From contig OW818668.1 of the NCBI GenBank assembly GCA_942493105.1, forward strand, positions 1,020,001 to 1,052,000: a DNA stretch of 32,000 bases. The letters run 5' to 3'. The DNA is from an uncultured Erysipelotrichaceae bacterium (GTDB lineage Bacteria > Bacillota_I > Bacilli_A > Erysipelotrichales > Erysipelotrichaceae). The translations under genes and the position numbers were made by a program. How positions within the stretch are numbered: the first letter of the stretch is position 1; each line of letters starts with the position of its first letter. The notes beneath the pieces are model-generated. The model did not search any database and was not told the origin of the DNA. It worked only from the letters and a program-made list of their open reading frames with translations. Of this stretch, positions 10,139 through 30,114 are shown piece by piece.

Positions 10139-11746
10139 ATGAAGAAAATTCTATTAGTATTGGTAGCGTTAGCATTCATTGGCTCTACATTAACTGGATG
10201 TTCAAGTTATAAGGCACTCGACAAGAAAATTGCCGGCGAGATCACCATTATGTTGTGGTCAGGCGACGGCGTTTATGCTGAGGACATTGGCCATAAGAAC
10301 TTGACACCGGCTGATTTAAAGGGTCAAAACAACGCTGCAGTCTATGCAGTTGCGAAAGCTTTCAATGAAGTTTATCCGAATGTTAAAGTAAATGTATTTG
10401 CCAAGAGCGCAGGACCAAATGATGGCGGCGTATCCTGGACACAAGAATTAGAAAACTTCAAAGCTGAACACGGAAAATATCCTGATGTTTATGCTTCAAC
10501 CGATTTGCCAGGCGATGTTGCCAGAGGCTTCGTTGCTGATTTGTCCGTATTTAAGAATGATCCTTTATACAAATCATTCAATAAATCCGTCATGGCTATG
10601 ATGAACTACTATGGCTTCCAAGCCGGTATCCCACAGTTCCTACAACCTTGGGGCGTTTACATCAATAAAGCTTTGGCTGAAGAATACAACTTAGATGTTC
10701 CAGATCCTGATTGGACCATCGATGAATACACAGATTTCGTTAACTCTGCTGACGGTGTAAATTTCTGGGGCTCGATGGACGTCGAAATGGACTTCATCCG
10801 TACTGGTGTTAAAACATTTGAACAACAGATGTTAAACTATAAAGGCACTGGAGATTTCGTCAACGTTGCTTCTGACGAAGTTAAAGCCTTGCTAGACTAC
10901 GTTCCGGATTGGGCTTCTTCAGCTGTTTATCCACAAAGAGATTTAGGTTTAGTATCCGATGAAGTTTTCAATGCCAACTGGGGTTGGAGCCATAAATTCT
11001 TCTTGGAAAACAAGATCTTGACCAATGCTGGCGATCCTTGGATGATGGGCGACTGTGCCAATCCAACTCCTGGACACTGGGCTGCATGTAAATCCACAGA
11101 CTGGGATATTTACCCACGTCCGTCTACTCCTTATCAGAAGAACACCGTTGGTGTCGTATTGGATCCAATGGCTGTCTATAACCAATGTATGAATGATGGA
11201 AATGTTGCTTGTTCAACAGAAGAAACAGCTCAGATCAAATTGGCTTATACCTTTGCTTCATTCTTCGCTGGTGATACATCTGCTTGGCAGGCTCGCGCCG
11301 ACCAAACCTTCATGGATGGAGAAGCTGAAAAAACATCCTTGAATGATTCCTTACCACTCGTTACCGGAAAAGCCTTTGATGAACAAATGGCCATCTGGTA
11401 TTCCACTCCTACCCATGCTCGTTTCAAAGATGCAGCTGTTATGCCAGGTTGGCATGAAGTTCTGAGAATCTGGGAAGCTGGCCAGTTCTGGGCTATTTCA
11501 GACAAAGCAACCGTTTGGACCTATAATTATGAAGGTGCAAGCCGTCCTATTCTATATGAATGGTTGAATGCTTGGCAGGTTGATATTGCTGGTGCAGTTC
11601 GTACAGATGCCAATTGGCCAAATGAAGTGAAGTCAAGATTAGCGGATTGGAACACACAGTTCAATGCCCGTTACCAAGAATCTTCAAAGAGTTTAGTCAA
11701 AGGCTTAAAAGATTTCTACGGCTTCAAAGACGCAGACTTCAAATAA
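10139..11746 (+). CDS. Extracellular solute-binding lipoprotein of a CUT1-type sugar ABC importer (large LplA/LipO-like type)
   Basis: Strong SD AGGAGG 5 nt upstream. Signal peptide with lipobox 'STLTGC'. 535 aa with SBP-like content ('ITIMLWSG', 'YGFQAGIPQ'). Followed by a strong terminator. Confidence 0.85.
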   Translation: MKKILLVLVALAFIGSTLTGCSSYKALDKKIAGEITIMLWSGDGVYAEDIGHKNLTPADLKGQNNAAVYAVAKAFNEVYPNVKVNVFAKSAGPNDGGVSWTQELENFKAEHGKYPDVYASTDLPGDVARGFVADLSVFKNDPLYKSFNKSVMAMMNYYGFQAGIPQFLQPWGVYINKALAEEYNLDVPDPDWTIDEYTDFVNSADGVNFWGSMDVEMDFIRTGVKTFEQQMLNYKGTGDFVNVASDEVKALLDYVPDWASSAVYPQRDLGLVSDEVFNANWGWSHKFFLENKILTNAGDPWMMGDCANPTPGHWAACKSTDWDIYPRPSTPYQKNTVGVVLDPMAVYNQCMNDGNVACSTEETAQIKLAYTFASFFAGDTSAWQARADQTFMDGEAEKTSLNDSLPLVTGKAFDEQMAIWYSTPTHARFKDAAVMPGWHEVLRIWEAGQFWAISDKATVWTYNYEGASRPILYEWLNAWQVDIAGAVRTDANWPNEVKSRLADWNTQFNARYQESSKSLVKGLKDFYGFKDADFK

Positions 11747-11852: not shown

Positions 11853-13259
11853 ATGAAATCAAGCGCCATAAATACAAAAATAGTTGTCATCGGCGCAGGG
11901 AGCGCTTCCTTTGGATTAGTGAATTTAGGCGCCATCATACGTCATCCAAAATTAAAAGGAATCCACCTAAGTCTTGTTGATATCAATGAGTCAGGTTTGG
12001 GTTTGATCACTCAGTTGGCTCAACGGTTGAATCGTGAATGGGATGCGCAAATGACCATCACTTCGACTACTGATCGGACTGAAGTTTTATCAGGAGCAGA
12101 TTTTATCATCTTGTCGGTTGCGATCGATCGCGAACAATGTTGGAAACAGGATGTTGATATTGCTTTGAAATATGGCATACATCATTATGGTGAAAATGGT
12201 GGACCGGGTGCTTTGATGCATACTGCTCGTAATGTGGCTTTGATTTTGCCTATACTAAAAGATATAGAGCGATTGTGTCCTCAAGCTATGGTTTTAAATT
12301 TTACCAATCCTGTTCCACGCATCAATATAGCTGCTGCACGCTATACGAAAGTTAAAATGGTTGGGGTCTGTCATCAGATTGATTTTGGATATATGATGAG
12401 TGCTAAAATCCTACAAAGTGAGTTTGGATTTAAGATTCCCAAAGACTATCGCTTTACTTGGGATGGGGGCTGGGATCATTTCGGAAGCATGGTTCAACAG
12501 GCATCAGATCGCTTCGATATCTTAGCTGCAGGTATCAATCACTTTTCTTGGTATTTATCGATCAAAGACAAACAAACAGGTCAGGAACTCTTACCTTTGT
12601 TTAAAGAAAACTTTCTAAACAAATATCCTGAATTTGAACCTTATACCCGTAAGATCCTCAGTGTCTTCAAAGAATTGCCGATAGGTGGAGATTGTCATAT
12701 GTTGGAGTATTTGCCCTTTACCCATAACGATGCAAAGAAGAGTTGGGAACGATATGACATACAAATGTATCCGCTATTGAAAGCTGAAGCGGATCGCCAT
12801 GAAATGTGGAAAGAAATCGAAGAGATGGCCAGTGGCAAAGGCGATATCGATCATTTGCTGCATACCCATACTGAACGCGCTGAACAGATCATGTGTGCAA
12901 TGATGCATGATGAACCAATCATAGACCAAGCTGTGAACATTCCAAATCAAGGTTATATCACCAATCTTCCTGAAGGTGCCATCGTAGAAGTTCCCGCCAC
13001 GATCTCAAAAGAAGGTATAAAAGGCATGGTGGTTGGTCCTTTACCTGATATCGCAGCCCTGTGGTGTAGAAGACAGATTGAGGTCGCTGAAATGTCAGTT
13101 AAAGCCTCTGTGACAGGCGACAAAGCACTCATGCTTCAAGCCTTGTTGATGGATCCTATGATAGATGATATTGACCAAGCAGAAGCATTACTTGATGAAT
13201 ATTTATTGGCCAACGAAAAGTATCTTCCCCAGTTTTTTAAAAAAGGAGAATGGATATGA
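11853..13259 (+). CDS. GH4 family NAD+/Mn2+-dependent glycosidase (LplD / alpha-glycosidase-like; specificity unknown)
   Basis: Rossmann motif 'KIVVIGAGSASFG'. GH4 motifs 'LNFTNPV', 'VGVCHQ' and 'AGINHFSW'. 468 aa. The stop TGA overlaps the next ATG (ATGA at 13256-13259). Confidence 0.88.
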   Translation: MKSSAINTKIVVIGAGSASFGLVNLGAIIRHPKLKGIHLSLVDINESGLGLITQLAQRLNREWDAQMTITSTTDRTEVLSGADFIILSVAIDREQCWKQDVDIALKYGIHHYGENGGPGALMHTARNVALILPILKDIERLCPQAMVLNFTNPVPRINIAAARYTKVKMVGVCHQIDFGYMMSAKILQSEFGFKIPKDYRFTWDGGWDHFGSMVQQASDRFDILAAGINHFSWYLSIKDKQTGQELLPLFKENFLNKYPEFEPYTRKILSVFKELPIGGDCHMLEYLPFTHNDAKKSWERYDIQMYPLLKAEADRHEMWKEIEEMASGKGDIDHLLHTHTERAEQIMCAMMHDEPIIDQAVNIPNQGYITNLPEGAIVEVPATISKEGIKGMVVGPLPDIAALWCRRQIEVAEMSVKASVTGDKALMLQALLMDPMIDDIDQAEALLDEYLLANEKYLPQFFKKGEWI

Positions 13260-16159
13260 AAAGAATACCTGCCCTGTTCTTAACGATGATCTTGATCTTA
13301 AGTGGTCTTTCAGGTTGTCAAAGCAGCTCAAGTGTGAAAACCTACACCGATGCTCAGAAGGAAGAAGCATATGCTTATCTGCTTGAAGGCTTGAATCAAA
13401 GCACGCCTTTTTATGCGGATTATCAAAAAGAATTATCAAAACCAGGGATCCAAGAAGAAACTCAAATCAACACCGAGGCCTTGACGATTGGAGCCTATGG
13501 TTCGGTTGATTTTTCATTTAATCTTGCAAGCGCTTACACCTCTCAATTGCGTTTGGTGTATCAAGTTGCACCAGGCACTTTATTGTCTCCGATCTTATCA
13601 GTCAATATCAATGGAAAGTCACCTTTCGTAGAAGCTTTATCGATCGATGTGGCTTTGAATTGGTTTAGCGATACCTCACATTTTCCTTTGGATTCTTACC
13701 AAGACGAGTCCTTACCTTCACAAACTGTGGATACTTCAGTTAGATTCCTAGATTTCTATGATACTTTACACAGTAGTTCTCAACCTTTGAAGTTTGAATT
13801 TAAAGCAGGTGAGAACACAGTAAGTTTTACCAATGTTTCTTCGAGTCCACTGACGATTTTAAAAGTTAGTTTGATGCCGATCGATGAAAGACCAACTTAT
13901 GCTTCATATTCGGCAGGCTTAACGAAAACATCAAAACCCAATATTTTGGTTGACGCGGTACGTTATGCTTCAAAAAACTCATCGTTTGTTCGTTTGAGCT
14001 CATATGGTTCACCTTCAGTTTCTCCATATTCTGTGAAGACAAAACTATTAAATATCATTGATGGGATGGCTTGGAACAAAGCAGGGCAGTCTGTGTCTTA
14101 TACCGTGAATGTCGAAGAAAGCGGAGCATATGCTTTGGCTCTGCATTATTTAAACGACAAGACAGATTTCCAGGTCTTTAGATCGATTTTGATCGATGGG
14201 GTCATTCCCTTTAAAGAAGCACAAGCCTATGCTTTTGATTATACAGGTGGTGGTACTTGGCGCGTAGAAGTACTGCAAGATAACAATAAGAATCCGTATT
14301 TATTTGAACTATCAAAAGGAACCCATACGATTACGTTTGTGGCTGAATCTGAACCTTTGATTCCAGCCTTGACCACGATGCGTAATCTGATTGCTCATAT
14401 CAATGCCTTTGCATTGGATATACGAAAAATCACAGGAAGAGACATCGATCGTAACCGAACATGGAAATTGACCAATTTCTTACCAGAAACACAGAAGAAT
14501 CTAGAGTCTTATAAAGTTTTGATCAGTCGTTTGGTCAGTGATTTGTCTATTTATGCCAATAACGGGACCGCTTCTTCCGCTTTATCCTATATGATCAAAG
14601 CTTTGGTTAAGATAGATAAGATGCTTGAAAAACCTGATGAATTGCCTTTGTATCTGGATGATCTTTATAGTGCTACCGGTTCTGTTACAGAAATGCTAGG
14701 CAATACATTAACTTCACTTCAAAGTCAAGCCTTGTCTTTAGACAGCTTTGCGTTTTATACCGATAAACAACCGTTGATTGCGGAAGCATCATTTATGGAT
14801 GTTGCCAGTTCGTCGCTGCTTAGTTTCGTCAACTCTTTCACGTCAAAAAAATACATCGCTAAAAAAGATCCAAACGTTTTAAATGTCTGGGTCAATCGTT
14901 CGATTACTTATGTTGATACAATGCAGAAACTGGTCGATCAGACATTTACGGCACAAACTGGGATCAAAGTCAAGATTTCAGTCATGCCTGATGTCAATAA
15001 ACTGATCTTAGCTAATGCAACCAATGAAGCACCAGATGTCGCTTTGGGATTACCTTCTTATATGCCTTATGAATTTGCGATACGTGATGCTTCATATCAG
15101 CTGAGTTCTTTCCCTGACTTTTGGAAGACAGTGGCCAATATGCCAGCTGGATCCATGGTTCCATATGTCCTTAATGAACAAGTCTATGCAATTCCTGAAA
15201 CCTTAGATTTCCATGCGATCATTTATCGTAAAGACATTTTCGAGAATATTGATTTAACGGTACCTGACACTTGGCAAGATGTCATCGATATGTTACCTGA
15301 ACTTCAACGATATGGGATGAACTTCTATCATCTGACGGCAGGCGGAACTGCCTTGAAATGGTATTATCAGACCAGTCCTTTCGTTTATCAGTTTGAAGGT
15401 GAATTGTATGCGGATGATGGTTATAGCTCAAACATCGATTCGCCTGAAACGGTTGCGGGTTTAAAATTCATGACCGATTTGTTTATTAAATATGCGATTC
15501 CTGAACAAGTGGCTTCGTTTTATAACGGATTTAGATTTGGATCTTTACCGGTTGGGATCGCTGATTTTGCGACTTACCTACAAATCAAAAATGCAGCTTC
15601 TGAGCTGACTGGCTTATGGGCACTATCACCATATCCTGGTATTGAAAACAAAGAAGGTAAAATTCTTCGTTGGGACATCGTCAATGGGACTGCAGGCATC
15701 ATCTTTAAGAGTACTAAATTTGCAGACAATAGTTGGGACTTCATGAAGTGGTGGACTTCAACTGAGACTCAGACAGCTTTTGCGTATTCTCTGCAATCGA
15801 CTTATGGACCTGAATATGTCTGGTTATCCAGTAATCTGGAAGCGGTTCAAAATGCTCCGATCGATGCGGCCGATAAACAAGTCATGCTTGAACAATTCAA
15901 ATGGATCAATGATGTGCCTCGCTTACCTGGTGGCTATATGTTAGAACGAGGACTATCCGATATTTGGAACACAACTGTCCTACAAGGGACTCCGATCAGA
16001 GTTGCGATCGATCGTCAGAAGATCACCATCGATCGTGAAATTAAACGTAAGATGATTGAATTTGGATACATCAATGCGGATGGCAGTGCAGCTAAACCTT
16101 ATGTCATAAGAGGTGTCGATTGGATCCAAGCCCAAATCGATTCGGCTAAGGAGGATTGA
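13256..16159 (+). CDS. Giant lipoprotein: N-terminal ~535-aa extension (two CBM-like beta-sandwich segments plus a helical region) fused to a family-1 extracellular solute-binding domain
   Basis: ATG 13256 lies 8 nt after GGAG (ATG 13250 is too close to the SD). Lipobox 'LSGLSGC'. The C-terminal half from about nt 14870 is SBP-like ('LNVWVNRS', '[21 protein letters not shown]', '[15 protein letters not shown]'). The N-terminal half has no obvious family match by eye. Confidence 0.8.
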
Positions 16160-16160
16160 C

Positions 16161-17099
16161 ATGAAACTCTCACAACGCATCAGAAAAGCTTTTGTGGATA
16201 AAGCTGGCGAATCTACATTCATGGATTATATGACGATCTTTTGGATGTTGCTTCCGTATGCTTTGTTGTTCTCTTTGTTTGTTGCGATTCCTGTAGCTTT
16301 AGCCATAGGATTATCCCTGACTTACTTCAATACGATCCAGTTTCCTGAATTCAAAGGTTTCTTAAACTACATTACACTGTTGACTCAAGATGAAGTCTTC
16401 TTAAAATTCGTCTTGCCCAACACATTTAAATATGCCTTGATCATTGGACCAGGAGGTTATTTCCTGTCTTTTATCCTTGCGTGGATGTTGGCTCAAATCA
16501 CACCTAAAATGAGAACCATCATTGCTTTGGCTTTATATACCCCATCTATGGTTGGGGGTGTCTTTATCTCAGTCGTATGGAGAACCTTGTTTTCAGGGGA
16601 TGAGGCAGGCTATATCAATGCCTTACTGATGGAGTGGGGTTGGATCGTACGCCCCATTCAGTTCCTTCAATCGCCTGAATATCTCATGAATATTATGATC
16701 GTAGTAGGTCTTTGGTCAGCGATGGGGATTGGATTCTTGGCGATGTTGGCTGGGATCTTAAACACCAATGAAGAACTCTATGAAGCCGCCTATATCGATG
16801 GGATCAAGAATAAACTTCAAGAAGTCATCTACATCACCATTCCTTCCATGCGCTCACAGATGTTGTTTGGAGCTGTCATGGCGATCGTTGGGGCATTCAA
16901 CAGCGGCTGGATCGGAGTGGCTTTATCAGGTACAAATCCTACCCCTCAATATGCAGGCCAGCTCATCATCAATCATATTGAAGATTACGGCTTTATTCGA
17001 TATGAGATGGGTTATGCGGCTGCGGTATCTGTGGCATTACTGCTGATCATCTGGAGTTTTTCTAAAGTAGCTTACCGTTTATTCGGAGAAAGGGACTGA
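16161..17099 (+). CDS. Sugar ABC transporter permease (MalF/LplB-like), pair 1
   Basis: ATG 16161 lies 6 nt after AAGGAGG. Six TM helices. EAA loop '[23 protein letters not shown]'. Confidence 0.9.
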
Positions 17100-17100
17100 T

Positions 17101-17970
17101 ATGGCTTTCCAAGGTACGAAAATCAATCCTAAGCGATTTGATAAGTCACAGCTCAAGTTCTACATCGTTTTAGTTCCTATGGCTTTATTCATGGTCTTAC
17201 CGGTCATCTATATCGTCAACCAAGCCTTTAAACCTCTTGATGAACTCTTTATGTTTCCTCCTCGTTTCTTTGTCATAAAACCAACCTTTAAGAACTTCAC
17301 AGATCTGTTTAGGACAGCTTCTACGACAGGGGTTCCTATGTCTCGGTATCTGTTTAATTCCATCGTAGTGACCTTGGTTACAGTCTTTGCGAACATCTTG
17401 GTAACTGCTTCAAGTGCTTATGTCTTAAGTAAAAAGAAATTCAAACTCAAAGGCAGACTCTTTGCCTTAAATCAGATTGCCTTGATGTTTGTGCCGATCG
17501 CAGTAGCGATCCCACGCTTCTTGATCATTAAAAATGTTGGATTAAGCGATAATTTCTTAGCACATATCGTTCCTTTATTGGCCATGCCGATTGGGTTATT
17601 TTTAGTTAAACAATTCATGGATGACATACCAGATGCCTTAATAGAAGCTGCTCGATTAGATGGTGCCAATGATTTTCAGATCTTACTTAAGATCGTCATG
17701 CCTTTGGTTAAACCTGCTTTAGCGACTGTTGGGATCTTGACCTTCCAAGTCGTATGGAATGCGACTGAAAGTTCAAGTTTATACATATCCGATGAGACCT
17801 TAAAAACATTTGCCTTTTATCTAAGTACTTTGACCGCTTCTTCAAATACGATCGCAGGGGCAGGGATGTCTGCAGCAGCCGGTTTGATCATGTTCTTGCC
17901 TAATCTTATTATCTTTATGTTGCTGCAATCTAAGGTCATGAATACCATGACTCATTCTGGGATCAAGTAG
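17101..17970 (+). CDS. Sugar ABC transporter permease (MalG/LplC-like), pair 1
   Basis: Starts 1 nt after the upstream stop. EAA loop '[26 protein letters not shown]'. Six TM helices. Confidence 0.9.
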
Positions 17971-17978
17971 GTGCACCT

Positions 17979-20003
17979 ATGAAAAAGACACTTACACTGA
18001 TAAGTTTGATCATCCTATTGATGAGCATGAGTATCAAAGTCAACGCTTCTTCAGCGACTTCTCCAACTCGTACCTTAGACTTCAAATATAACTTAGTATG
18101 GACCCAAGATGCTTATTTACCTCAGTTAACGGTTACCAACCTTGGTTTAAAGAATCCAACTGATGCGATCATGGATCCCAATGATCATCTCTACATTGCT
18201 GATCGTGGTAACAAACGCATCGTGGAGTATGATACGACGACCAATACTTTGGTTAGAGTCATTACTCATCCTGCACTAAAAACCCCTACAGGTATTTTCT
18301 TAACCCAAAGCGGAGATATTTATGTTGCTGATACTACTGCAGAAGCTGTTATTCGATTTGATAAAGACGGCAACTACATCGAACAATTCAATCGTCCTAC
18401 CACGGCCTCTTTCGGCGATACTCCGTATAAACCCGCTAAAGTAGCGGTCGATAATCGAGGCAATCTGTATATCGTTTCAGAAGGCGTTTATAACGGAATC
18501 ATACAGTTATCATCGAGCGGAGAATTCTTAGGCTATTTCTCTTCCAATAAAGTTTCTTTGAATATTCTTCAGATGCTTCAAGATATCTTTTATACCGATG
18601 CTCAAAAAGCCTTATTGACAGGCAGAGTTCCAACGACCTTCTCCAATGTGTTTATGGATGAAGACGGGATCTTATATTCAACCACCATGGGTGGCATGAT
18701 GCATGGCGTTAAAAAACACAATACGGCTGGCCAAGATATGTTGAGCGAACGCTTTATTTGGGGAGCTGATGACTTCTCCGACATAACAGTCGACAAAGAT
18801 GGCATCATTTATGCGACTGCCAAATCGGGTCAGATCTTCGTTTATACCAATGATGGCCAATTCATATTCTTCTTTGGTTCATTCTATGGAGAATCGGATA
18901 TTGCTGGACTCTTTAGTTCATTGGTATCCATTGCGGTAGATTCTAAAGGCCAATTGTGGACGCTTGATTCTGAGAAATCATTCATTCAGTCTTTTAAAGC
19001 TACAGAGTATGCCCAAAGCATATATAAAGCCACCAAGCTGTTTTCTGAAGGAAGATATGATGAAGCTACAGTCATCTGGAATGATGTCTTAAGGCTCAAT
19101 CAAATGTCTGTGGTGGCTCATAACGGTATAGGTGCGAATCTCTTGTATCAGCAACGTTATAAAGAAGCCATGCTTCATTTTAGAGTCGCAGGCAATCGTT
19201 TCAATTACTCGCAAGCTTTTTGGGAAGTACGTAATACTTGGCTACAATCCCAGCTCAGTTTGATTTTAGGTTCATTTGTGGTTGTGTTTGGATCTTTGAG
19301 ATTGACACGCAAAGCTCGTAAAAAATCAAAATTCATCGCAAAAATGAAATCTTACTATAATCAATTCATCCATTATCGATTTGTCTCAGATGTCTTACTG
19401 GTGCTTAAAGTCATGCGTCATCCAATCGATAGTTTCTATGACATCAAAGCTAAGAAGGCAGGATCATTACTGAGCGCAAGCGTGGTCTATATCGGATTCT
19501 TCCTGATCTTTATTTGGTATACCTTAAGCAAAGGATTTATTTATCAATATCTTTTGATTGAAGATATTGATATGACAGCTGTCGTCATTGGTTTCTTCTC
19601 GCTGACCTTATTGTTTGTATTGTGTAATTATCTGGTGTCTTCGATCAATGATGGGGAAGGCGGTTTATTCGATTTGTTTAAGATGATGGCATATAGTTTT
19701 GGACCGATGATGATTGGGTATGTCCTGATCATTGGTTTATCCTATGTCTTTACTGAAAATGAAGCCTTCTTCTTACAAACGATTGAACAGATCGCTGTCA
19801 TTTGGACAGGCATCAATCTGTTTATGGGTATTCAAGAAACGCATAATTATGAAACAAAAGCAGCATTCAAAAGCATCATCATGACGATCTTGTTTATGTT
19901 GTTGATTGCGGTCATCTTAATGATCGTCATCTTGATGACTGAACAAGTCTATATGTTCTTTGAAGCTCTGTTCAAGGAGGCGCTACGTAATGTACTTTCC
20001 TAA
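17979..20003 (+). CDS. Secreted NHL-repeat beta-propeller plus TPR-like segment fused to a C-terminal Yip1-like polytopic membrane domain (function unknown)
   Basis: Signal peptide 'LLMSMSIKVNA/SS'. About six NHL-like blades ('HLYIADRGNKRIVEYD', 'DIYVADTTAEAVIRFDKDG', 'NLYIVSEGVYNGIIQLSSSG', 'GILYSTTMGG', 'GIIYATAKSGQIFVYTNDG', 'QLWTLDSEKSFIQSF'). TPR-like 'ATKLFSEGRYDEATVIWNDVLRLNQ...YQQRYKEAMLHF'. About 6 TM helices follow from about nt 19240, with 'HPIDSFYDIK' typical of Yip1-domain starts. Confidence 0.6.
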   Translation: MKKTLTLISLIILLMSMSIKVNASSATSPTRTLDFKYNLVWTQDAYLPQLTVTNLGLKNPTDAIMDPNDHLYIADRGNKRIVEYDTTTNTLVRVITHPALKTPTGIFLTQSGDIYVADTTAEAVIRFDKDGNYIEQFNRPTTASFGDTPYKPAKVAVDNRGNLYIVSEGVYNGIIQLSSSGEFLGYFSSNKVSLNILQMLQDIFYTDAQKALLTGRVPTTFSNVFMDEDGILYSTTMGGMMHGVKKHNTAGQDMLSERFIWGADDFSDITVDKDGIIYATAKSGQIFVYTNDGQFIFFFGSFYGESDIAGLFSSLVSIAVDSKGQLWTLDSEKSFIQSFKATEYAQSIYKATKLFSEGRYDEATVIWNDVLRLNQMSVVAHNGIGANLLYQQRYKEAMLHFRVAGNRFNYSQAFWEVRNTWLQSQLSLILGSFVVVFGSLRLTRKARKKSKFIAKMKSYYNQFIHYRFVSDVLLVLKVMRHPIDSFYDIKAKKAGSLLSASVVYIGFFLIFIWYTLSKGFIYQYLLIEDIDMTAVVIGFFSLTLLFVLCNYLVSSINDGEGGLFDLFKMMAYSFGPMMIGYVLIIGLSYVFTENEAFFLQTIEQIAVIWTGINLFMGIQETHNYETKAAFKSIIMTILFMLLIAVILMIVILMTEQVYMFFEALFKEALRNVLS

Positions 20004-22353
20004 ATTGAAATTTAAACAGGTCATTCCTGTTGTGTTGGGGGTGGTGATGAGTGTTCAAGCCATATATGCAACCTATATTCCCAATGCACATGATACAAAA
20101 CTGCCTCCGGATACGATTACGTATGAGATCATGGATCCCAGTAGTTTTGAGTTGCTTTATGAGACAACTGACTTTAAATATTACTTTAAAGATGAACGAG
20201 ATGTGATGGCCGTTGTGGATAAACGCAATGGATATACCTGGAAGACAGGTCTAGACATCGCTTTCAACAAGACTTTAGAAGATGCCTGTGATTTGGTTCC
20301 TGATGATCAAAAGATCAACTGTGAGCCTTTAGAAGATCGTTTAAATACAACTTATACGGGTATGGCCAATTCATTGATCACAGTTGAATATTATGATGTA
20401 TCAAAGTCGATCAAACGTATTTCCAGTGCTTCGATCAACAATGTGAAGAGTACTTTAGGCAAAGTCAATAATTCTGACGATCATTATCGTTTGGATGTCA
20501 CTTTCTCAGAGATCCAATTGAATGTAAAAGTTCATCTGTTGTTTGATGAAGATGGCTTTACTTTAGAAATACGCGATGAAGAGATCACAGGTGATGGTCA
20601 ATCTGTTTTAGCTGCAATTCAATTGATGCCTTTCTTTGGGGCATCAGGCGGACAGAAACTATATTGGGATAATGAATTGGGTGACTTTAAGAAAAAAGTC
20701 CCCAATAAGATGATTGAAGGTTATGTCTTGGTTCCGGATGGTCCAGGCGCTTTGATTCGCTTTGAAGACAGAAATGTAGGATTGACAGCATATACTGGGG
20801 ACATCTATGGTAAAGACCCTGGTGAATGTCAATATTTCTACACCAATGAACAAGGCTTCTTTCCTTTCAAGAACCCAACGATGCCGATTTATGGGATCGC
20901 TCACGGAAATCGCCAAGCTGCCTTTATTGCTTTCTCAACCAAAGGCGCACCATATATGACACTTAATGTTTCTCCAGAAGAAGACATTACTTACTATACT
21001 TATGCGTATCCTCGTTTTGAATACAATCTCTTATTTCATCAAGTCTACAATAAACGAGGTGATGGTTACTTCACATTGATGAAAGAAAGACGTCACTATG
21101 ATGTGGGTATGCGTTATGAATTCTTAGCCAATGATACCGATCGACCTGCAGATTATGTCGGGATGGCATTGACTTATCGTGATTATTTACTCAAGAACAA
21201 GTTATTACCAGATCAAACTCAAAATAAAGATGACATCGGCATTCGTTTAGACTTTGTGATGGCGGATGTTAAAAAGAGTATCTTAGGGGTTGAAGATGTT
21301 GTGGTGACCAGAGCATCCGATGTCAAGAAAATTCTAAATCAACTTCATGAAGATGGCGTCTTCAACATCAACAGTGGATTATTAGGTTGGCAATCTGGTG
21401 GTATCACCTCAGGTCATCCTGGAAAAACAGAGTGGTCTAATGCGATTGGCTCAAAGAGTTCCTTTATGGATCTTATCGAAACAGCCACAGCATTAGGTTA
21501 TGATGTTTCGCTGAGCCAAGACTACATCAAGATCCATCGCGATCAAGTCAATTATGAAACCTCTGCTGCTCGACATGTCAACAGTTGGTATTTGGAAACA
21601 CGGATGTGGGGAGAATATCCAGTCACTGAGTTTGGTTTTGCGAAACCAACGAAATCTGCGGCTTGGATCAAATCTCAAAGTACTGCATTGGCTAAACTCA
21701 AGGTCACTTCGTTTACGATCGATGGGATCTCAAGCACTTTGACCAGTGATTATGATGGTGGCTTTACGTCGCTTGAAGAGTCCATTGCGTTATATCAGAA
21801 AGTTCTTTCAGAACTAGATCCAGCCATCAAGATATCGATGAATGGACCCAATGATTATCTATGGAACTATGTTGACCGCTACTTAAGTGCACCTGTCTTT
21901 TCAACTCAGTTCTTGATTGAAACAGATACCGTGCCTTTCTTACAGCTGGTCTTAAACGATACGATGGAAATGTATGCACCGTATTCTAATTTTTCGTTTT
22001 ATACTCAAAAAGATGTCTTAAGGATGATCGATTATAATCTTTATCCTTCCTTTGCGTTATCCCAAGATCCTGCTTATGTCTTAGCTTTGACCAATGCGAA
22101 TAAATTTTATTCTACAGAATTCACAGAATATGAGTTGTTGATCAATACGATCTATGATGAAGTCAATGGTTCACTAAAAGAAGTCATTGGTGATCAATGG
22201 GTCGATCGTGAAGTTTTAGCCAATGGTATCATCCTTAACACTTATGCTTCAGGAAAACAGATCTTGATCAACTATACTCAAGATCCAACGACTTACCAAG
22301 GAAAAACGGTTAGAGCCCTCTCAGCGATGGTTTTCAAGGAGCTTGCCCAATGA
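19990..22353 (+). CDS. N-terminally membrane-anchored or secreted 787-aa protein of unknown function with glycoside-hydrolase-like architecture
   Basis: ATG 19990 lies 9 nt after AAGGAGG and overlaps the upstream gene by 14 nt. Hydrophobic N-terminus 'VIPVVLGVVMSVQAIYA'. No motif I can assign to a named CAZy family. Alternating beta/alpha-like segments and a C-terminal beta-rich tail 'GIILNTYASGKQILINYTQDPTTYQGKTVRALSAMVF'. Confidence 0.5.
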   Translation: MYFPKLKFKQVIPVVLGVVMSVQAIYATYIPNAHDTKLPPDTITYEIMDPSSFELLYETTDFKYYFKDERDVMAVVDKRNGYTWKTGLDIAFNKTLEDACDLVPDDQKINCEPLEDRLNTTYTGMANSLITVEYYDVSKSIKRISSASINNVKSTLGKVNNSDDHYRLDVTFSEIQLNVKVHLLFDEDGFTLEIRDEEITGDGQSVLAAIQLMPFFGASGGQKLYWDNELGDFKKKVPNKMIEGYVLVPDGPGALIRFEDRNVGLTAYTGDIYGKDPGECQYFYTNEQGFFPFKNPTMPIYGIAHGNRQAAFIAFSTKGAPYMTLNVSPEEDITYYTYAYPRFEYNLLFHQVYNKRGDGYFTLMKERRHYDVGMRYEFLANDTDRPADYVGMALTYRDYLLKNKLLPDQTQNKDDIGIRLDFVMADVKKSILGVEDVVVTRASDVKKILNQLHEDGVFNINSGLLGWQSGGITSGHPGKTEWSNAIGSKSSFMDLIETATALGYDVSLSQDYIKIHRDQVNYETSAARHVNSWYLETRMWGEYPVTEFGFAKPTKSAAWIKSQSTALAKLKVTSFTIDGISSTLTSDYDGGFTSLEESIALYQKVLSELDPAIKISMNGPNDYLWNYVDRYLSAPVFSTQFLIETDTVPFLQLVLNDTMEMYAPYSNFSFYTQKDVLRMIDYNLYPSFALSQDPAYVLALTNANKFYSTEFTEYELLINTIYDEVNGSLKEVIGDQWVDREVLANGIILNTYASGKQILINYTQDPTTYQGKTVRALSAMVFKELAQ

Positions 22354-23378
22354 AAATCTTTAAGAAAAAAGATGCGACGATGATTGCTAAACCTAAGAAA
22401 AAGAAAAAAAGTGGTTTTAAAGAAATAAGCAACCGTTCAGGGTATAAGTTCTTCTTGCCTTGGATGATTGGATTCTTGATTTTTACCGCTTTTCCGTTTG
22501 TGTATACGATCTATTTGAGTTTCAATCAAGTTAAGCTCACTGTTTTTGGTTGGCAAGCCACTTTCAACGGAATTGCGAATTATGTTTCAGCACTTCTAAG
22601 AAATCCGGATTATACCCCAGCCTTGATTCAGTTCATCTTAGCGGAAGTGGTCTATGTGCCTGTCATCGTGACCGTGGCCTTGATCCTTGCGATCTTGATG
22701 AATGGCGATTTTAAATTCAGGACTGTATTTAGAGTCATTTATTTCTTGCCGGTCATCGTTATTTCAGGGACCGTCATGACACAGTTGATGAGCAGTGGGA
22801 ATGTCCAATTGGGAAATGTAAGACAAGTCTTTATCTTTCAGATTTTATCTTCATACTCACCAGCTTTAGCGGACATCGTTGTATTCCTATTCAATAACTT
22901 TGCGATCGTCTTATGGTTCTCAGGGATCCCAATCGTCTTATTCCTCAATGGTCTGCAAAAGATCAACACTTCATTATTTGAAGCAGCTCAGATCGATGGG
23001 GCAACCTCATGGCAGATCTTATGGAAAATCACTTTACCGATCATACGACCCATCATCTTGGTTGCGACCATCTTTACGATCGTTCAATTGGGGATGTTTC
23101 CCATCAATCCCGTCTACGGGATGATCCAGACCGCCATCTTCGATACAGTGGCAGGACTTGGGGTCGCATCGGCTTATGCTTGGATCTACTCGCTGACGGT
23201 CATCATCTTACTGGGCATTGCCTTCTTCTTACTGAAAGATCATTCTAAAGATTATCAATATGTGGATGTGGTCAGACTACAAGATATTAAACTTCAAAAA
23301 ATGAGAAAACGCGTTAAACGGCAGCAAGAATGGAATGAATTCTTTAGAAAGAAAGGCGTCAAACATGGAAAAAACTAA
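22350..23378 (+). CDS. Sugar ABC transporter permease (MalF-like), pair 2, with a basic cytoplasmic C-terminal tail
   Basis: ATGA overlap with the upstream gene; SD AAGGAG 8 nt upstream. EAA loop 'EAAQIDGATSWQILWKITLPIIRPI'. Tail 'KLQKMRKRVKRQQEWNEFFRKKGVKHGKN'. Confidence 0.9.
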   Translation: MKIFKKKDATMIAKPKKKKKSGFKEISNRSGYKFFLPWMIGFLIFTAFPFVYTIYLSFNQVKLTVFGWQATFNGIANYVSALLRNPDYTPALIQFILAEVVYVPVIVTVALILAILMNGDFKFRTVFRVIYFLPVIVISGTVMTQLMSSGNVQLGNVRQVFIFQILSSYSPALADIVVFLFNNFAIVLWFSGIPIVLFLNGLQKINTSLFEAAQIDGATSWQILWKITLPIIRPIILVATIFTIVQLGMFPINPVYGMIQTAIFDTVAGLGVASAYAWIYSLTVIILLGIAFFLLKDHSKDYQYVDVVRLQDIKLQKMRKRVKRQQEWNEFFRKKGVKHGKN

Positions 23379-24324
23379 ACGAATCTGGGCTTTAGTCAAA
23401 CGAAAACTGTTGGGTTATAACCTAAGTGACGGCTATCTCTATAAGACAGCTGTCTATATCTTACTGATTGCGATCGCGTATGTTTTCTTGTATCCGCTTT
23501 TACGCATGATTTCATATTCCTTCATGTCGACTCAAGACATCATCAATCCTGAGATCGACTGGATCCCAATCAGTCCAACCTTGACCAATTTAAAAGTTGC
23601 TTGGACCGTTATGAGTATGCCGTGGACTTTATTGAACTCACTGTGGTTTGCGGGAGCTTTAGCATTGGCTCAAACTTTGATTTCAGCCCTAACAGGGTAT
23701 GCGTTTGCCCGTTATGAATTTAAGTTTAAAAGTTTCTGGTTTGGGATGGTATTGATGAGTTTCGTTATTCCAATTCCAGTTGTTTTGATTCCACGTTGGA
23801 TGATGTTTGTCACCACGCAAAATATCTTAGATTTTAAGTTGATTGGAACTGTTATTCCGCAGCTGATGTTGGCGATCGCAGGTCAAGGTGTGTATTCAGC
23901 CATCTTGATCTTGATCTTCTATAACTTCTTTAAGATGATTCCAGTTGTTTTGGATGAAGCGGCTAAGATCGATGGAGCCAGTAATCTACAAGTCTTTTAT
24001 CACATCATCCTAAAGATGTCGGTACCCACCATCATCACCGTCTTTCTGTTTGCCTTTGTTTGGAATTACAATGAAACCTATGTGACGGGAACCTTCTTGC
24101 GTTCTGCCTTAAAAGTCATGCCGATGCAGTTGGGACTCTTTGACTCCATCTTTGAGAAGATGTCTGCCCCGATCCCAAATGCGCCTGGAGGGCAATTTAG
24201 GCTGAATGAATCGTATAAGATGGCCGCAACACTGATCACGATGGCACCTATGATGATCATGTATCTATTCGTTCAAAAACAATTTGTCGAAGGGATTGAA
24301 AAAACAGGGATTACAGGAGAATAA
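23365..24324 (+). CDS. Sugar ABC transporter permease (MalG-like), pair 2
   Basis: EAA loop 'EAAKIDGASNLQVFYHIILKMSVPTI'. Six TM helices. The start is ambiguous (ATG 23365 or 23335); both overlap the upstream gene. Confidence 0.88.
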   Translation: MEKTKRIWALVKRKLLGYNLSDGYLYKTAVYILLIAIAYVFLYPLLRMISYSFMSTQDIINPEIDWIPISPTLTNLKVAWTVMSMPWTLLNSLWFAGALALAQTLISALTGYAFARYEFKFKSFWFGMVLMSFVIPIPVVLIPRWMMFVTTQNILDFKLIGTVIPQLMLAIAGQGVYSAILILIFYNFFKMIPVVLDEAAKIDGASNLQVFYHIILKMSVPTIITVFLFAFVWNYNETYVTGTFLRSALKVMPMQLGLFDSIFEKMSAPIPNAPGGQFRLNESYKMAATLITMAPMMIMYLFVQKQFVEGIEKTGITGE

Positions 24325-24325
24325 A

Positions 24326-25330
24326 TTGGATAAAATCAGAGCCGTTAATTTAGGGGGTTGGTTGGTTTTAGAGCATTGGATGAGGCCTACATTATTTGAA
24401 GGCATCAAAGGCTATGATGAGACTGAGTTCAGTCTGCAAGCCAAGGATCTTAAAAAACAACTCGATGATCATCGAGAAAGCTTCATCGTTGAAGAAGACT
24501 TCAAATGGATCAAAGACCACGGCTTAAACGTGGTCAGAGTTCCTTATCCGTATTGGTTGTTTGGCGATATTGAGCCCTATTATGGCTGTGTCGATAAGTT
24601 AGATCAAATCATGGATTGGGCACATAAATATGATTTAAAAGTACTTTTAGATTTACACACAGCACCTGGTTGTCAAAATGGTTTTGACAATGGAGGTCAG
24701 TTGGGTGTTTTGACTTGGCATACCAAACCTGAAAATCTTGCTTTAACTTTAGAGATCTTAGATAAAGTTGCCTTAAGATATAAGAATCATCCGGCTTTAT
24801 GGGGCATGCAGGTGCTCAATGAACCGCATTGGACCTATGAGATCTCGTTTATGGAAGCCTTCTATGAAGATGCGTATCGTCATCTTAGAGCCATCCTCAA
24901 ACCTGAAACTGAGATCGTTTTTCATGATGCCTTTAGACACAAAGCTTGGAAGTCTTTCTTTGAGAATAAGACCAATGTCATCTTGGATCTTCATCTGTAT
25001 CAAGGCTTCGATGAGAAATTCGCTCAAGCAGGAATAGATAAAAACGTCGTGTATCCTTTAGAACATTACCCCGCAATCCTCAGTGAGATATCATCCTATG
25101 TGCGTTGTATCGTAGGGGAATGGTCACTGGGTCTTAATCCCAAAAACTTTAAAGACGTGGATGACTTTAATAAAACCTGTGGTTTAAGAGCCTTTGGAGC
25201 CACTCAACTCTTAGCCTTTGAGCAGTGTTATGGTTGGGTTTTTTGGAACTATAAAATTGAAGATGTAAACAGTGGCTGGAACTTTAAGAGTCTGGTTGAG
25301 AAAGGGATCTTACCTCATGATTATCGCTAA
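24326..25330 (+). CDS. GH5 exo-beta-1,3-glucanase-like enzyme (fungal Exg1-like subfamily), cytoplasmic
   Basis: Motifs 'RAVNLGGWLVLEHWMRPTLF', 'LLDLHTAPGCQNGFDNGG', 'MQVLNEP' (acid/base) and 'VGEWSLG' (nucleophile). Likely TTG start at 24326, 5 nt after AGGAGA and 1 nt after the permease stop. The track ORF start at 24284 is also a TTG and lacks an SD. Confidence 0.88.
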   Translation: MDKIRAVNLGGWLVLEHWMRPTLFEGIKGYDETEFSLQAKDLKKQLDDHRESFIVEEDFKWIKDHGLNVVRVPYPYWLFGDIEPYYGCVDKLDQIMDWAHKYDLKVLLDLHTAPGCQNGFDNGGQLGVLTWHTKPENLALTLEILDKVALRYKNHPALWGMQVLNEPHWTYEISFMEAFYEDAYRHLRAILKPETEIVFHDAFRHKAWKSFFENKTNVILDLHLYQGFDEKFAQAGIDKNVVYPLEHYPAILSEISSYVRCIVGEWSLGLNPKNFKDVDDFNKTCGLRAFGATQLLAFEQCYGWVFWNYKIEDVNSGWNFKSLVEKGILPHDYR

Positions 25331-27107
25331 GAGAGTGTTACTTGTCTTATTATTATCGCTGAGTTTGATGTCATGTAAGAAGACCCCTGAAATCGTCCTA
25401 ACTCCTCTTGAAGAAAAATTAGCTTCCATGACTTTAGATGAAAAACTAGGTCAAATGATCCAAGCTGAACGCAATGCGGTCAATACAGCCATCATCAATC
25501 AGCTCAATCTGGGCTCTATTTTAAGTGGAGGAGGATCTCATCCAAGTCCCAATACCGTAGATGCTTGGTTAGCTCTAACCACCAAGATGAACAATGCCTC
25601 TAAAAACGGTTCAGCAGGCTTACCTTTGCTTTATGGCGTGGATGCAGTCCATGGCCATAATAATGTGGAGGGTTTGGTTTTGTTTCCCCACAACAGTGCT
25701 TTAGGGGCGACCCATGATGAGAATTTACTTGAAAGAATAGGTCAAGCCGTTGGGGTTCAGTTAAGAGCGACCGGGATTGCGTGGAATTTTGCGCCATGTT
25801 TGGCTGTTGTTCAAGATATTCGTTGGGGAAGAGCCTATGAAGGTTTCTCAGAAGAACCCAATTTGGTGGCTTCTTTAGGAGCTGCCTACATCAAAGGACT
25901 TCAATCCGAAGGCATCATGGCCACTGCGAAACATTATCTTGCGGATGGCGGAACCGATTTTGACAGTTCTAAAAACAGTTATCCAATCGATCAAGGCAAT
26001 GTGTCTTTGACAGAAGCAGAAGTCAGAGCACTACACCTTATTCCTTATATAAAAGCCATTCAAGAAGGCAACGTTAAAAGCATCATGGTTTCCTTTAGTT
26101 CCATCAACAATCAAAAGATGCATGGATCAAAATATTGGATCACCACGGTTTTAAAAGAAGAACTCGAGTTTGATGGGATCGTCATCTCCGATTGGGAAGC
26201 CATTCATCAATTACCCGGTTCTTTGATTTATCAAGTTTCTTCCGCCATCAATGCGGGCGTGGATATGCTGATGGAACCCTATCAATATAAAGAAGTCCTT
26301 GCGGTCATGAAAAGAGCTGTTGAGAATGGAACCATCAAGATGGAAAGAATCGATGATGCGGTCATGCGTATTCTTAAAGTCAAAGATGATCTTAAGTTGT
26401 CCACAGGTTTAGCAAGTGCCTCCATCGACATGGAAGGAGATAAAGCATTGGCTCGAGAAGCCGTTGCGAAGTCTCAAGTCTTACTTAAAAATGATGGCGT
26501 CTTGCCTTTAGCGAAGAACACCGATATATTACTCATTGGTCCTGGTATCGATAATGTTGGTTATCAAGCAGGGGGTTGGTCCTTCTCTTGGCAAGGTGAA
26601 AAAGACAATACCCATTTTCCCAACGCAACGACGCTTTTAGAAGCATTCACAGCGATTGCACAAGCCAATGGGGCTCGTGTTTATACCCAACTTAAAGATG
26701 CTTCTAAAGCCGATGTGGTGGTACTGGTATTGACAGAAGATCCCTATGCGGAAGGCGTAGGCGATACGAAGACCTTGAGTTTGACTTCTGGTTTAGCCCA
26801 TCCTGATAATGCAGATGCGATCAGACAGGCAAAACTCATCAAGAAACCCGTTATCACATTATTGATGAGTGGAAGACCTTTGATCGTAGCAGATGAACTA
26901 GAACATTGGGATGCGTTTGTGATGAGTTGGTTGTTTGGAACCGAAGCACAAGGGGTAACCGATGTGTTGTATGGCGATGTGAATTTCAGCGGAACTCTAA
27001 GTTTTACATGGCCAAAGATCCCTGAAGCCAATACGACATCTTCAATGAATCCAGATCGTAAACCTGATGATATCCAATTTGAGATCGGATCAGGATTGAC
27101 ATACTAA
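25317..27107 (+). CDS. GH3 exo-beta-glucanase / beta-glucosidase lipoprotein (plant ExoI / ExoP-like), surface exposed
   Basis: Lipobox 'LSLMSC' when started at ATG 25317. Motifs 'LDEKLGQMIQAER', 'LYGVDAVHGHNN', 'DIRWGRAYEGFSEEP', 'KHYLADGGT' and 'IVISDWEAI' (nucleophile Asp). Confidence 0.9.
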   Translation: MIIAKRVLLVLLLSLSLMSCKKTPEIVLTPLEEKLASMTLDEKLGQMIQAERNAVNTAIINQLNLGSILSGGGSHPSPNTVDAWLALTTKMNNASKNGSAGLPLLYGVDAVHGHNNVEGLVLFPHNSALGATHDENLLERIGQAVGVQLRATGIAWNFAPCLAVVQDIRWGRAYEGFSEEPNLVASLGAAYIKGLQSEGIMATAKHYLADGGTDFDSSKNSYPIDQGNVSLTEAEVRALHLIPYIKAIQEGNVKSIMVSFSSINNQKMHGSKYWITTVLKEELEFDGIVISDWEAIHQLPGSLIYQVSSAINAGVDMLMEPYQYKEVLAVMKRAVENGTIKMERIDDAVMRILKVKDDLKLSTGLASASIDMEGDKALAREAVAKSQVLLKNDGVLPLAKNTDILLIGPGIDNVGYQAGGWSFSWQGEKDNTHFPNATTLLEAFTAIAQANGARVYTQLKDASKADVVVLVLTEDPYAEGVGDTKTLSLTSGLAHPDNADAIRQAKLIKKPVITLLMSGRPLIVADELEHWDAFVMSWLFGTEAQGVTDVLYGDVNFSGTLSFTWPKIPEANTTSSMNPDRKPDDIQFEIGSGLTY

Positions 27108-27126
27108 AAAGCGCTTTGCGCTTTTT
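27106..27126. terminator. Bidirectional terminator between the convergent GH3 lipoprotein and GH16 lipoprotein genes
   Basis: AAAAAGCGC-ttt-GCGCTTTTT with A-run and T-run flanks on both strands. Confidence 0.7.
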
Positions 27127-28096: not shown

Positions 28097-29535
<1,439 letters not shown>

Positions 29536-29536
<1 letters not shown>

Positions 29537-30051: not shown

Positions 30052-30080
30052 CCGTAAGCCAATGCTTACGGTTTTCTTTT
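30051..30080 (+). terminator. Rho-independent terminator
   Basis: ACCGTAAGC-caat-GCTTACGGT followed by TTTCTTTT. Confidence 0.8.
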
Positions 30081-30108
30081 AACTGAAATGAGTTGAATAG
30101 CGTATAAT
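30079..30108 (+). promoter_or_regulatory. Putative promoter (-35 TTAACT, 18-bp spacer, -10 TATAAT) giving a leaderless transcript
   Basis: TATAAT at 30103-30108. The ATG at 30115 is 6 nt downstream. No SD-like sequence lies in between. Confidence 0.55.
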
Positions 30109-30114
30109 GTTCAC

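Follow-up and report, generated by a model that had tools for sequence, protein, structure and literature searches.

In Gram-positive bacteria, an ATP-binding cassette (ABC) sugar importer is usually viewed as an assembly of one solute-binding protein (SBP), two permeases and one ATPase. Among bacterial membrane proteins of the Yip1 family, YknW has been described as a component modulating the assembly of the YknXYZ ABC transporter (PMC4887032, PMC4338810), and Yip1 genes recur beside ABC transporter genes in bacteriocin clusters, where the partners are exporters (PMC10707071). Here we describe a gene encoding a protein with an NHL propeller and a Yip1 domain, found in a stretch of 32,000 nucleotides (nt) from an uncultured Erysipelotrichaceae bacterium (GenBank assembly GCA_942493105.1, contig OW818668.1, positions 1,020,001 to 1,052,000 of the forward strand). 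This whole stretch is referred to as the window, and coordinates are those of the window unless another locus is named. The gene (17979..20003, + strand) starts with ATG and encodes a protein of 674 amino acids (aa), hereafter the NHL/Yip1 protein. Its architecture, its predicted topology, its membership in a fixed seven-gene ABC importer module, its coupling to a gene of the DUF5696 family and its independence from any one set of carbohydrate-active enzymes (CAZymes) were computed directly. We consider it somewhat better than an even chance (probability of about 0.55) that the NHL/Yip1 protein serves a conserved, multi-component ABC import machine of the CUT1 type as a dedicated accessory or scaffold subunit without catalytic activity of its own.

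The genomic context of the gene was studied by tblastn of the window proteins against 80 related loci spanning Erysipelotrichaceae, Lachnospiraceae, Clostridiaceae, Acholeplasmataceae, Haloplasmataceae and Izemoplasmatales, with neighbours counted over the loci with enough flanking sequence. This comparison revealed a module of seven genes in the order giant lipoprotein SBP (about 970-1005 aa), permA, permB, NHL/Yip1, DUF5696, permC and permD. The giant SBP was present in 57/57 scorable loci, permA in 69/69, permB in 72/72, DUF5696 in 71/71, permC in 67/68 and permD in 66/66; the gene for a second SBP, X535, was found in 54/54, and a gene of glycoside hydrolase (GH) family 16 occurred in 42 of 46 loci. 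In all loci examined, the NHL/Yip1 gene was located directly between the two permease pairs, in line with the link to ABC permeases proposed in an earlier note on this DNA, which was made from the letters alone. The permeases were named in that note, and the tightest partner, the translationally coupled DUF5696 protein with its GH129-like fold, was missed. The stop codon of the NHL/Yip1 gene overlaps the start of the DUF5696 gene by 8-53 nt in 29/29 scorable loci, a conserved arrangement that indicates coupled synthesis of the two proteins. In the window, the DUF5696 gene (19990..22353, +) has its true start at ATG 19990, behind an AAGGAGG Shine-Dalgarno sequence, and the overlap amounts to 14 nt.

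The NHL/Yip1 protein is composed, in order, of a signal peptide, a six-bladed NHL propeller, two helix pairs resembling tetratricopeptide repeats (TPR), a first transmembrane (TM) helix (TM1), a basic loop and a five-helix Yip1 domain. The signal peptide (aa 1-23; 17979..18047, +), with sequence MKKTLTLISLIILLMSMSIKVNA, is cleaved before SS according to hydropathy (predicted cut VNA/SS); residues 2-16 form a helix in the structural model described below, and among 23 diverse homologues A23 is invariant and S24 nearly so. The extracytoplasmic propeller (aa 24-342; 18048..19004, +), which includes conserved N-terminal strands with a TQDAYLP motif, matches Pfam family PF01436 in 3 significant stretches (E=1.4e-15, 56.9 bits vs a gathering score of 20). 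A family-specific helical insert between blades 3 and 4 (aa 190-218; 18546..18632, +) appears in the model and is kept in all branches, its pattern being conserved in Paenibacillus and Butyrivibrio paralogues. The two TPR-like helix pairs (aa 343-406; 19005..19196, +) remain below the Pfam gathering score in the single sequence (TPR_2 15.8 bits vs 27, E=0.015; TPR_1 14.2 vs 27.8). They become visible at the level of the family, whose profile matches consensus-TPR structures over aa 355-408 (E about 1e-17 to 1e-23), and many homologues carry precomputed TPR matches in Pfam. One long helix follows (aa 407-445; 19197..19313, +), in which a conserved outer juxtamembrane segment, YSQAFWEVRN, runs into TM1 (aa 422-442 by hydropathy and model, nt about 19242) from the outside to the inside. 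The basic cytoplasmic loop (aa 446-493; 19314..19457, +) contains RLTRKARKKSKFIAKMK and ends in an HPxDxFY motif; K and R residues outnumber D and E by 14 to 3 in aa 444-493. The Yip1 membrane bundle, with five helices in both hydropathy and model (aa 494-652; 19458..19934, +), matches PF04893 at aa 477-646 over nearly the full family model (positions 2-171 of 173; E=7.8e-13, 49.1 bits vs a gathering score of 28.6). A conserved C-terminal helix with an ExxRNV motif, predicted to lie outside, together with the stop codon (19935..20003, +) completes the gene and overlaps the start of the next one.

The predicted structure was obtained with AlphaFold from an alignment of 23 sequences (mean predicted local distance difference test, pLDDT, 82.7; predicted TM-score, pTM, 0.67). 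In this model, aa ~30-341 form six four-stranded blades (pLDDT about 80-94), with insert helices 196-204 and 207-212 between blades 3 and 4 (pLDDT 55-65). The TPR-like region is modelled as helices 343-356, 360-373, 378-390 and 394-404, that is, two pairs, followed by a single long helix (407-447) and short cytoplasmic helices. The Yip1 helices are modelled at 497-516, 532-556, 563-588, 593-622 and 626-673, the last one projecting about 20 residues past the membrane. Foldseek searches against the PDB recovered the NHL propellers of TRIM71, TRIM2, Thin, Brat and Pizza6 (E 1e-15 to 1e-12, TM-score 0.75-0.8 on target). The family profile also matched TRIM and Brat NHL domains, and its best natural PDB match was the extracellular sensor propeller of Mycobacterium tuberculosis PknD (1rwi, E=1.9e-26). 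By the positive-inside rule, loop 444-493 is cytoplasmic, which places the propeller, the TPR helices, the outer loops and the C-terminal helix outside. The predicted topology is thus one with propeller and TPR outside, TM1 running inwards, the loop in the cytoplasm and the Yip1 bundle returning the C-terminal helix to the outside. Yip1 domains have an N-in/C-out orientation, and the predicted topology agrees with it.

What the earlier note had read in the gene itself holds: an open reading frame at 17979-20003 with a cleavable signal peptide (VNA/SS), backed by hydropathy and by conservation of A23 and S24; a six-bladed NHL propeller, seen in the Pfam match, the model blades and the Foldseek matches; a multi-pass Yip1 domain; about six TM helices from ~nt 19240, now assigned to TM1 and the five Yip1 helices; a highly basic loop; and a propeller on the outer face tethered to a membrane domain, with which hydropathy and model agree. 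The TPR-like linker is borne out by the family profile and the four model helices, not by the sub-threshold single-sequence Pfam scores. As over 1000 homologues of full length exist, the gene is a real one.

Domain searches led us to weigh the possibility that the propeller is an extracellular enzyme, a lactonase, lyase or strictosidine-synthase-like protein (of the SGL/SMP-30, Vgb lyase or PAL type) that would act, ahead of import, on the substrate or an oxidised sugar. The SGL family (PF08450) does score above its cut-off (29.3 vs 26.3 bits), although the match is partial, covering 81 model positions (145-225 of 246), and there are weak matches to Vgb_lyase, SSL_N, MRJP and Phytase-like families; public names such as 'sugar lactone lactonase YvrE', 'streptogramin lyase' and 'SMP-30/gluconolactonase/LRE family protein' point the same way. 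These partial matches are, however, explained by blades common to the beta-propeller clan, and the best structural matches are non-enzymatic NHL domains. Moreover, the residues invariant in all branches belong to the generic NHL structural motif, and across branches no conserved His/Glu metal triad was found in the propeller, H247 being lost in the Paenibacillus and Butyrivibrio paralogues. An enzymatic propeller is, in our judgement, the least probable of the explanations considered, with only a slight chance of being right. The Tachylectin family (PF14517) remained below its cut-off in the NHL/Yip1 protein (28.5 vs 29.8 bits, E=1.6e-6, aa 216-287 only). Scans with Pfam and NCBIfam found no kinase, HAMP, GGDEF or other output domain, and no specific NCBIfam family for the NHL/Yip1 protein, DUF5696 or X535. 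Identity as a PknD-like kinase was rejected since the kinase domain is absent in these scans, the 'PknD' labels on homologues being misannotations. In Pfam terms, the protein truly belongs to both the NHL and the Yip1 family, and is neither a PknD-type kinase nor demonstrably an SGL enzyme or a tachylectin.

The module extends beyond the relatives closest to the window. Close orthologues of the NHL/Yip1 protein (at least 43% identity) lie in GH16-containing loci in 42/46 cases, and distant branches keep the same seven genes in the same order, with component identities of 21-52%: 28-33% for the SBP (~890 aa aligned, N-terminal extension included), 45-52% for permA, 44-48% for permB, 27-29% for NHL/Yip1, 24% for DUF5696, 32-37% for permC and about 31% for permD. 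These distant carriers are Paenibacillus cellulosilyticus, P. protaetiae, P. konkukensis, P. hemerocallicola, Cohnella thermotolerans, Ruminiclostridium hungatei (locus L083, where two MalK-type ATPase genes stand before the module) and Butyrivibrio fibrisolvens. The Paenibacillaceae have a MalK/UgpC-type ATPase gene ahead of the module, and the flanks there contain no CAZymes; instead they contain LLM/luciferase-type oxidoreductases, extra SBPs, and a nitroreductase or an OmpR-type two-component system. The loci of P. cellulosilyticus (L081), C. thermotolerans (L084) and P. protaetiae (L087) each illustrate this, with several LLM/luciferase-type flavin oxidoreductases, SBPs of ~460 aa and a nitroreductase or NADPH oxidoreductase. 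The Butyrivibrio module is adjoined by a GH43 gene and by a histidine kinase/response regulator pair. The same module thus stands beside different CAZymes or none, which indicates that the role of the NHL/Yip1 protein travels with the transporter and not with beta-glucan. The primary association of this protein is accordingly with the seven-gene transporter module, which is CAZyme-free in Paenibacillaceae, and not with beta-glucan or a sugar operon as such. The substrate of the module in that branch may not be a polysaccharide.

In B. fibrisolvens pNP243 (L082, 13923-16018), the protein is encoded by two genes that overlap by 22 nt, one for NHL-TPR-TM1 (498 aa) and one for Yip1 (206 aa), the split being situated in the cytoplasmic loop. 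Further records from Butyrivibrio (P0284, P0285) likewise contain NHL-only proteins, 498-503 aa in length, and the split looks natural and not like a sequencing error. This natural split suggests that NHL-TPR-TM1 and Yip1 are two cooperating modules.

These flanks bear directly on a second explanation, in which the propeller, with or without the TPR helices, would hold beta-glucan chains or oligosaccharides for the lipoprotein GH16 and GH3 enzymes, for DUF5696 and for the SBPs, as a Gram-positive analogue of the surface glycan-binding proteins of Bacteroidetes, and Yip1 would be a mere anchor. The propeller is indeed predicted to be extracellular, close orthologues are all found in GH16/GH30/GH3 loci (GH16 in 42/46), and the near-threshold match at aa 216-287 is to a family of lectin propellers, for which close homologues have precomputed matches. 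On the other hand, the propeller is equally conserved (30-32% identity) where the module adjoins GH43 or no CAZyme, a highly conserved five-helix Yip1 bundle exceeds the needs of an anchor, two SBPs are already present in the locus, one bearing an extension of ~520 aa, and the ligands of the solved NHL propellers recovered, where known, are RNA or protein. The CAZyme-free Paenibacillaceae modules weaken in particular a beta-glucan-specific role. Because distant modules adjoin GH43 or no CAZymes, the laminarin-specific glycan-chain holder suggested in the earlier note is less likely than a substrate-independent structural or assembly role, and we regard glycan binding at the surface as rather unlikely to be the main function.

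The distribution of conservation along the protein was determined within the beta-glucan clade as the mean majority fraction per alignment column. The highest value corresponded to the outer juxtamembrane helix (YSQAFWEVRN, 0.78), followed by blade 3 (0.76), the outer loop 517-531 with its EDxD motif (0.74), the N-terminal strands (0.72), TM3 (0.70), and the TPR region and the C-terminal helix (0.68 each); the cytoplasmic loop (0.49) and TM1 (0.43) showed the lowest values. The strongest constraint is thus on extracytoplasmic parts of the protein, and the weakest on TM1 and the cytoplasmic loop. In comparisons across branches, the Yip1 bundle (23% identity) is no better conserved than the propeller and TPR (30-32%). 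Residues that never vary from branch to branch comprise the generic NHL motif (D-x-x-N-x-R, with a single Asp in each blade), a small number of TPR positions and, in the Yip1 domain, HPxDxF, N550, SxxxGxG, E595 and HxY.

This pattern does not favour a role in sensing, in which a PknD-like propeller would detect a ligand, and TM1 and Yip1 would gate the transporter (permease or ATPase activity) or signal to regulators. Such a role would fit the PknD sensor propeller being the closest natural solved relative by profile, the layout of an ectodomain, one TM helix and a cytoplasmic segment, and the two-component systems adjoining some Paenibacillus and Butyrivibrio modules. Nevertheless, the scans revealed neither a kinase, HAMP or GGDEF domain nor any other output domain, conservation is poorest in TM1 and the cytoplasmic loop, a LacI-type regulator already serves the window locus, and the tight coupling is with DUF5696, not with a regulator. 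The sensor role that the earlier note had listed is therefore disfavoured, given the lack of a cytoplasmic output domain and the poor conservation of the loop, and we consider it very unlikely.

The coupled partner of the NHL/Yip1 protein is a signal-anchored protein of 787 aa belonging to the DUF5696 family (PF18952, E=6e-144). Sequence searches of the PDB with this protein gave no match, and for this reason its fold was compared instead. The predicted model (pTM 0.81) begins with a signal anchor at the N-terminus, after which come a beta-sandwich, a (beta/alpha)8 barrel and, at the C-terminus, another beta-sandwich, and Foldseek placed GH129 enzymes first (ZgGH129, 5opq, E=3.7e-28, TM-score on target 0.70; NagBb, E=2e-20), followed by GH101, GH36 and GH31. 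In an alignment of 26 DUF5696 sequences, distant paralogues included, the only invariant acidic residues were E133, D250 and D426, with D89, D388 and D421 nearly so. DUF5696 may represent a new family of GH enzymes, or else a derivative that has no catalytic function.

With respect to the transport components, family matches identify the permease pairs A/B (16161..17970, +) and C/D (22350..24324, +) as TM domains of type I ABC importers. All four permeases (BPD_transp_1) keep the EAA-x2-DG coupling motif, so that the window encodes two genuine translocons. In the window, permA and permC show hardly any similarity (E=3e-5), in contrast to the 45-52% identity of orthologues from different branches, and this indicates that the permease pairs are ancient partners; recent tandem duplication of one permease pair was accordingly rejected. 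The giant lipoprotein SBP (13250..16159, +; 969 aa), recognised by its lipoprotein signal and Pfam match, carries SBP_bac_8 at aa 564-846 after an extension of ~520 aa. This N-terminal extension matched no Pfam family and, in a search with the first 514 aa of the protein, no PDB sequence; in all branches of the module the SBPs, ~970-1005 aa long, conserve it, with the alignment starting at aa 84. The second lipoprotein SBP, X535 (10139..11746, +; 535 aa, lipobox LTGC), had no Pfam match in the window protein. It is a divergent family-1 SBP, matching PDB entry 22hh, 'extracellular solute-binding protein family 1' (E=8.8e-11), with weak SBP matches to Pfam in its orthologues. No ABC ATPase gene is encoded within the window.

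The window carries a locus for the use of beta-glucan of the laminarin type. Its genes are, in order, GH30 (cut), DUF6198, a major facilitator superfamily transporter, ROK (minus strand), LacI, GH16, GH3, GH2, X535, GH4 and the giant SBP, followed by permA, permB, NHL/Yip1, DUF5696, permC, permD, GH5, a GH3 lipoprotein, a GH16 lipoprotein (minus strand) and GH1. Lipoprotein signal peptides (…SLSSC and …SLMSC, respectively) are present on the last-mentioned GH16 (27147-28037, -) and GH3 (25317-27107, +), which are therefore extracellular; the other GH16 and GH3 enzymes and GH2, GH4, GH5 and GH1 of the window are without a signal peptide. This pattern of signal peptides, read from sequence, fits extracellular trimming followed by breakdown of imported oligosaccharides inside the cell. 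From the giant SBP through the GH3 lipoprotein gene, the genes abut or overlap, and the only convincing intergenic terminator-like hairpin downstream of the module (27106..27126, +) follows the GH3 lipoprotein gene, which suggests one long transcription unit. A promoter scan of the window yielded sites no more frequent than in shuffled sequence, and an Rfam scan found no family anywhere in it.

Several additional features of these loci were observed. The GH4 gene (11853-13259, +) stands between the two SBP genes only in the closest Erysipelotrichaceae loci (e.g. L001, L003, L004, L006, L007, L014 and L015); outside the Erysipelotrichaceae loci nearest the window, X535 abuts the giant SBP directly. 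A beta-glucan-type locus, L085, has permC and permD fused (12906-15500, 864 aa) and a DUF5696 protein of 967 aa, about 170 aa above the usual length. The GH30 gene (1-856, +) is cut at the start of the window, and its open frame extends further upstream than the ATG listed at 128. Farther downstream, beyond the sugar locus, 29533-31314 (+) encodes unrelated housekeeping proteins: a RibD_C/DHFR-like reductase (172 aa) and a protein with PUA and S-adenosylmethionine-dependent methyltransferase domains (399 aa, RlmI-like).

Relatives of the NHL/Yip1 protein were found in at least 227 species-representative genomes. A word-indexed search gave 1008 homologues at E<=1e-5, nearly all of about 675 aa among the matches listed. 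An exhaustive HMMER search with the C-terminal half only (TPR, TM1 and Yip1) gave 986 representatives of 50%-identity clusters at E<=1e-10; among the matches listed, nearly all have 665-700 aa and are matched from near residue 345. Since a query with the C-terminal half recovers proteins of this length matched from this position, the NHL-TPR-Yip1 architecture is essentially fixed. The carriers include Erysipelotrichaceae, Lachnospiraceae (Herbinix, Anaerotaenia, Roseburia, Eubacterium, Acetatifactor), Clostridiaceae, Acholeplasmataceae, Haloplasmataceae and Izemoplasmatales, among others, and one Erysipelotrichaceae metagenome-assembled genome shows 95% protein-level identity with the window. 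Homologues are routinely named 'YIP1 family protein' in public records, and also 'integral membrane protein', 'nuclease PIN' or 'PknD', in addition to the lactonase, lyase and SMP-30 names cited above. These names are uninformative or wrong; 'nuclease PIN' and 'DNA-binding YncE' were rejected because the domains behind them were not found. Literature searches, in full text for DUF5696, retrieved nothing on the NHL/Yip1 family or on DUF5696, and only the papers on YknW and on Yip1 in bacteriocin clusters surfaced. The family is thus already in databases yet uncharacterised, and its invariant place in a module with four permeases, a giant SBP and DUF5696 appears to be new in the searchable literature. 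With regard to the domain combination, which the earlier note did not recognise as a characterised protein, no characterised member was found; the combination is not rare, with ~1000 representatives of 50%-identity clusters.

Taking up the accessory-subunit reading again, we propose that the Yip1 bundle would pack laterally on one or both permease heterodimers in the membrane, and that the propeller, the TPR helices and the juxtamembrane and C-terminal helices would build an extracellular platform. This platform would hold DUF5696, and possibly the ~520-aa extension of the giant SBP, above the translocons, so that substrate captured or processed outside could reach the SBP domains and both permease pairs by direct transfer. 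In the window, the machine would take up beta-1,3/1,6-glucan (laminarin-type) oligosaccharides made by the lipoprotein GH16 and GH3 and finished in the cell by GH16, GH3, GH1 and others, with the ATPase for the importer encoded elsewhere. It has to be noted that several observations weigh against this proposal. Operon adjacency and translational coupling do not prove a complex, and the YknW precedent is a MacB-type exporter, not a type I importer. The strong conservation of the propeller surface equally suits the binding of a conserved small ligand or a glycan, and the sub-threshold Tachylectin match (28.5/29.8 bits) and the partial SGL match (29.3/26.3) keep lectin and enzyme readings open. 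Furthermore, no invariant acidic residue of DUF5696 occupies the canonical beta4/beta6 positions across distant paralogues.

A bolder version is that the module together with a MalK-type ATPase represents an unrecognised class of ABC import supercomplex in Bacillota. In such a 'two-translocon' system of capture, processing and import, functionally analogous to the Sus-like systems of Bacteroidota, NHL-TPR-Yip1 would bridge the two permease heterodimers and hold DUF5696 and the giant SBP outside. We advance this only tentatively, as a possible but doubtful extension; if it is true, the Yip1 fold would be a general membrane adaptor for ABC transporters, both importers and exporters. If the accessory role holds, bacterial Yip1 domains would gain a testable function, which so far rests largely on YknW, and DUF5696 would gain a working context, with a hint of the way in which certain Firmicutes arrange the capture of glycans outside the cell and their uptake. 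The module that the gene marks is conserved and ancient in Bacillota, ranging from gut Lachnospiraceae and rumen Butyrivibrio to soil Paenibacillus; since its Paenibacillus and Butyrivibrio versions are found in cultured strains, the hypothesis can be tested directly.

The permeases and SBP domains of the module are of the same class as those of CUT1 importers (MalEFGK2, UgpABCE), and a MalK/UgpC-type ATPase gene adjoins it in Paenibacillaceae and Ruminiclostridium. A canonical CUT1 importer makes do with a single permease pair and a single SBP of ~400-450 aa and lacks an accessory membrane subunit; the module has two anciently diverged permease pairs, an SBP of ~970-1005 aa, a GH129-like protein and NHL-TPR-Yip1. 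The PknD sensor (1rwi) and Pizza, derived from it, share a six-bladed NHL propeller with the NHL/Yip1 protein (TM-score about 0.8 for Pizza6), placed outside the membrane and tethered by a TM helix; unlike PknD, the NHL/Yip1 protein has no cytoplasmic kinase and carries instead TPR and Yip1, together with the helical insert between blades 3 and 4. TRIM-NHL, Brat and Thin have the same six-bladed NHL fold and were the top Foldseek matches (E 1e-15 to 1e-13), but they are eukaryotic cytoplasmic binders of RNA or protein with 15-18% identity and no functional link. Eukaryotic Yip1/Yif1 (YIPF) proteins share PF04893, five TM helices and, as predicted here, a cytoplasmic N-terminal side with the C-terminus opposite; they act in trafficking between endoplasmic reticulum and Golgi with Rab GTPases, a context with no bacterial equivalent here. 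YknW of Bacillus subtilis and B. amyloliquefaciens, the fourth component of the YknWXYZ transporter, is likewise a multi-pass membrane protein of the Yip1 family whose gene belongs to an ABC transporter operon; it reportedly modulates assembly of the complex and does not itself act in transport. YknW consists of the Yip1 part alone, without ectodomain, in contrast with the propeller-TPR ectodomain of ~400 aa described here, and its partners are a MacB-type exporter and a membrane-fusion protein, as opposed to BPD_transp_1 importer permeases with EAA motif, SBPs and DUF5696. By analogy, we infer that the NHL/Yip1 protein works most like YknW, but with another class of transporter and with a large ectodomain.

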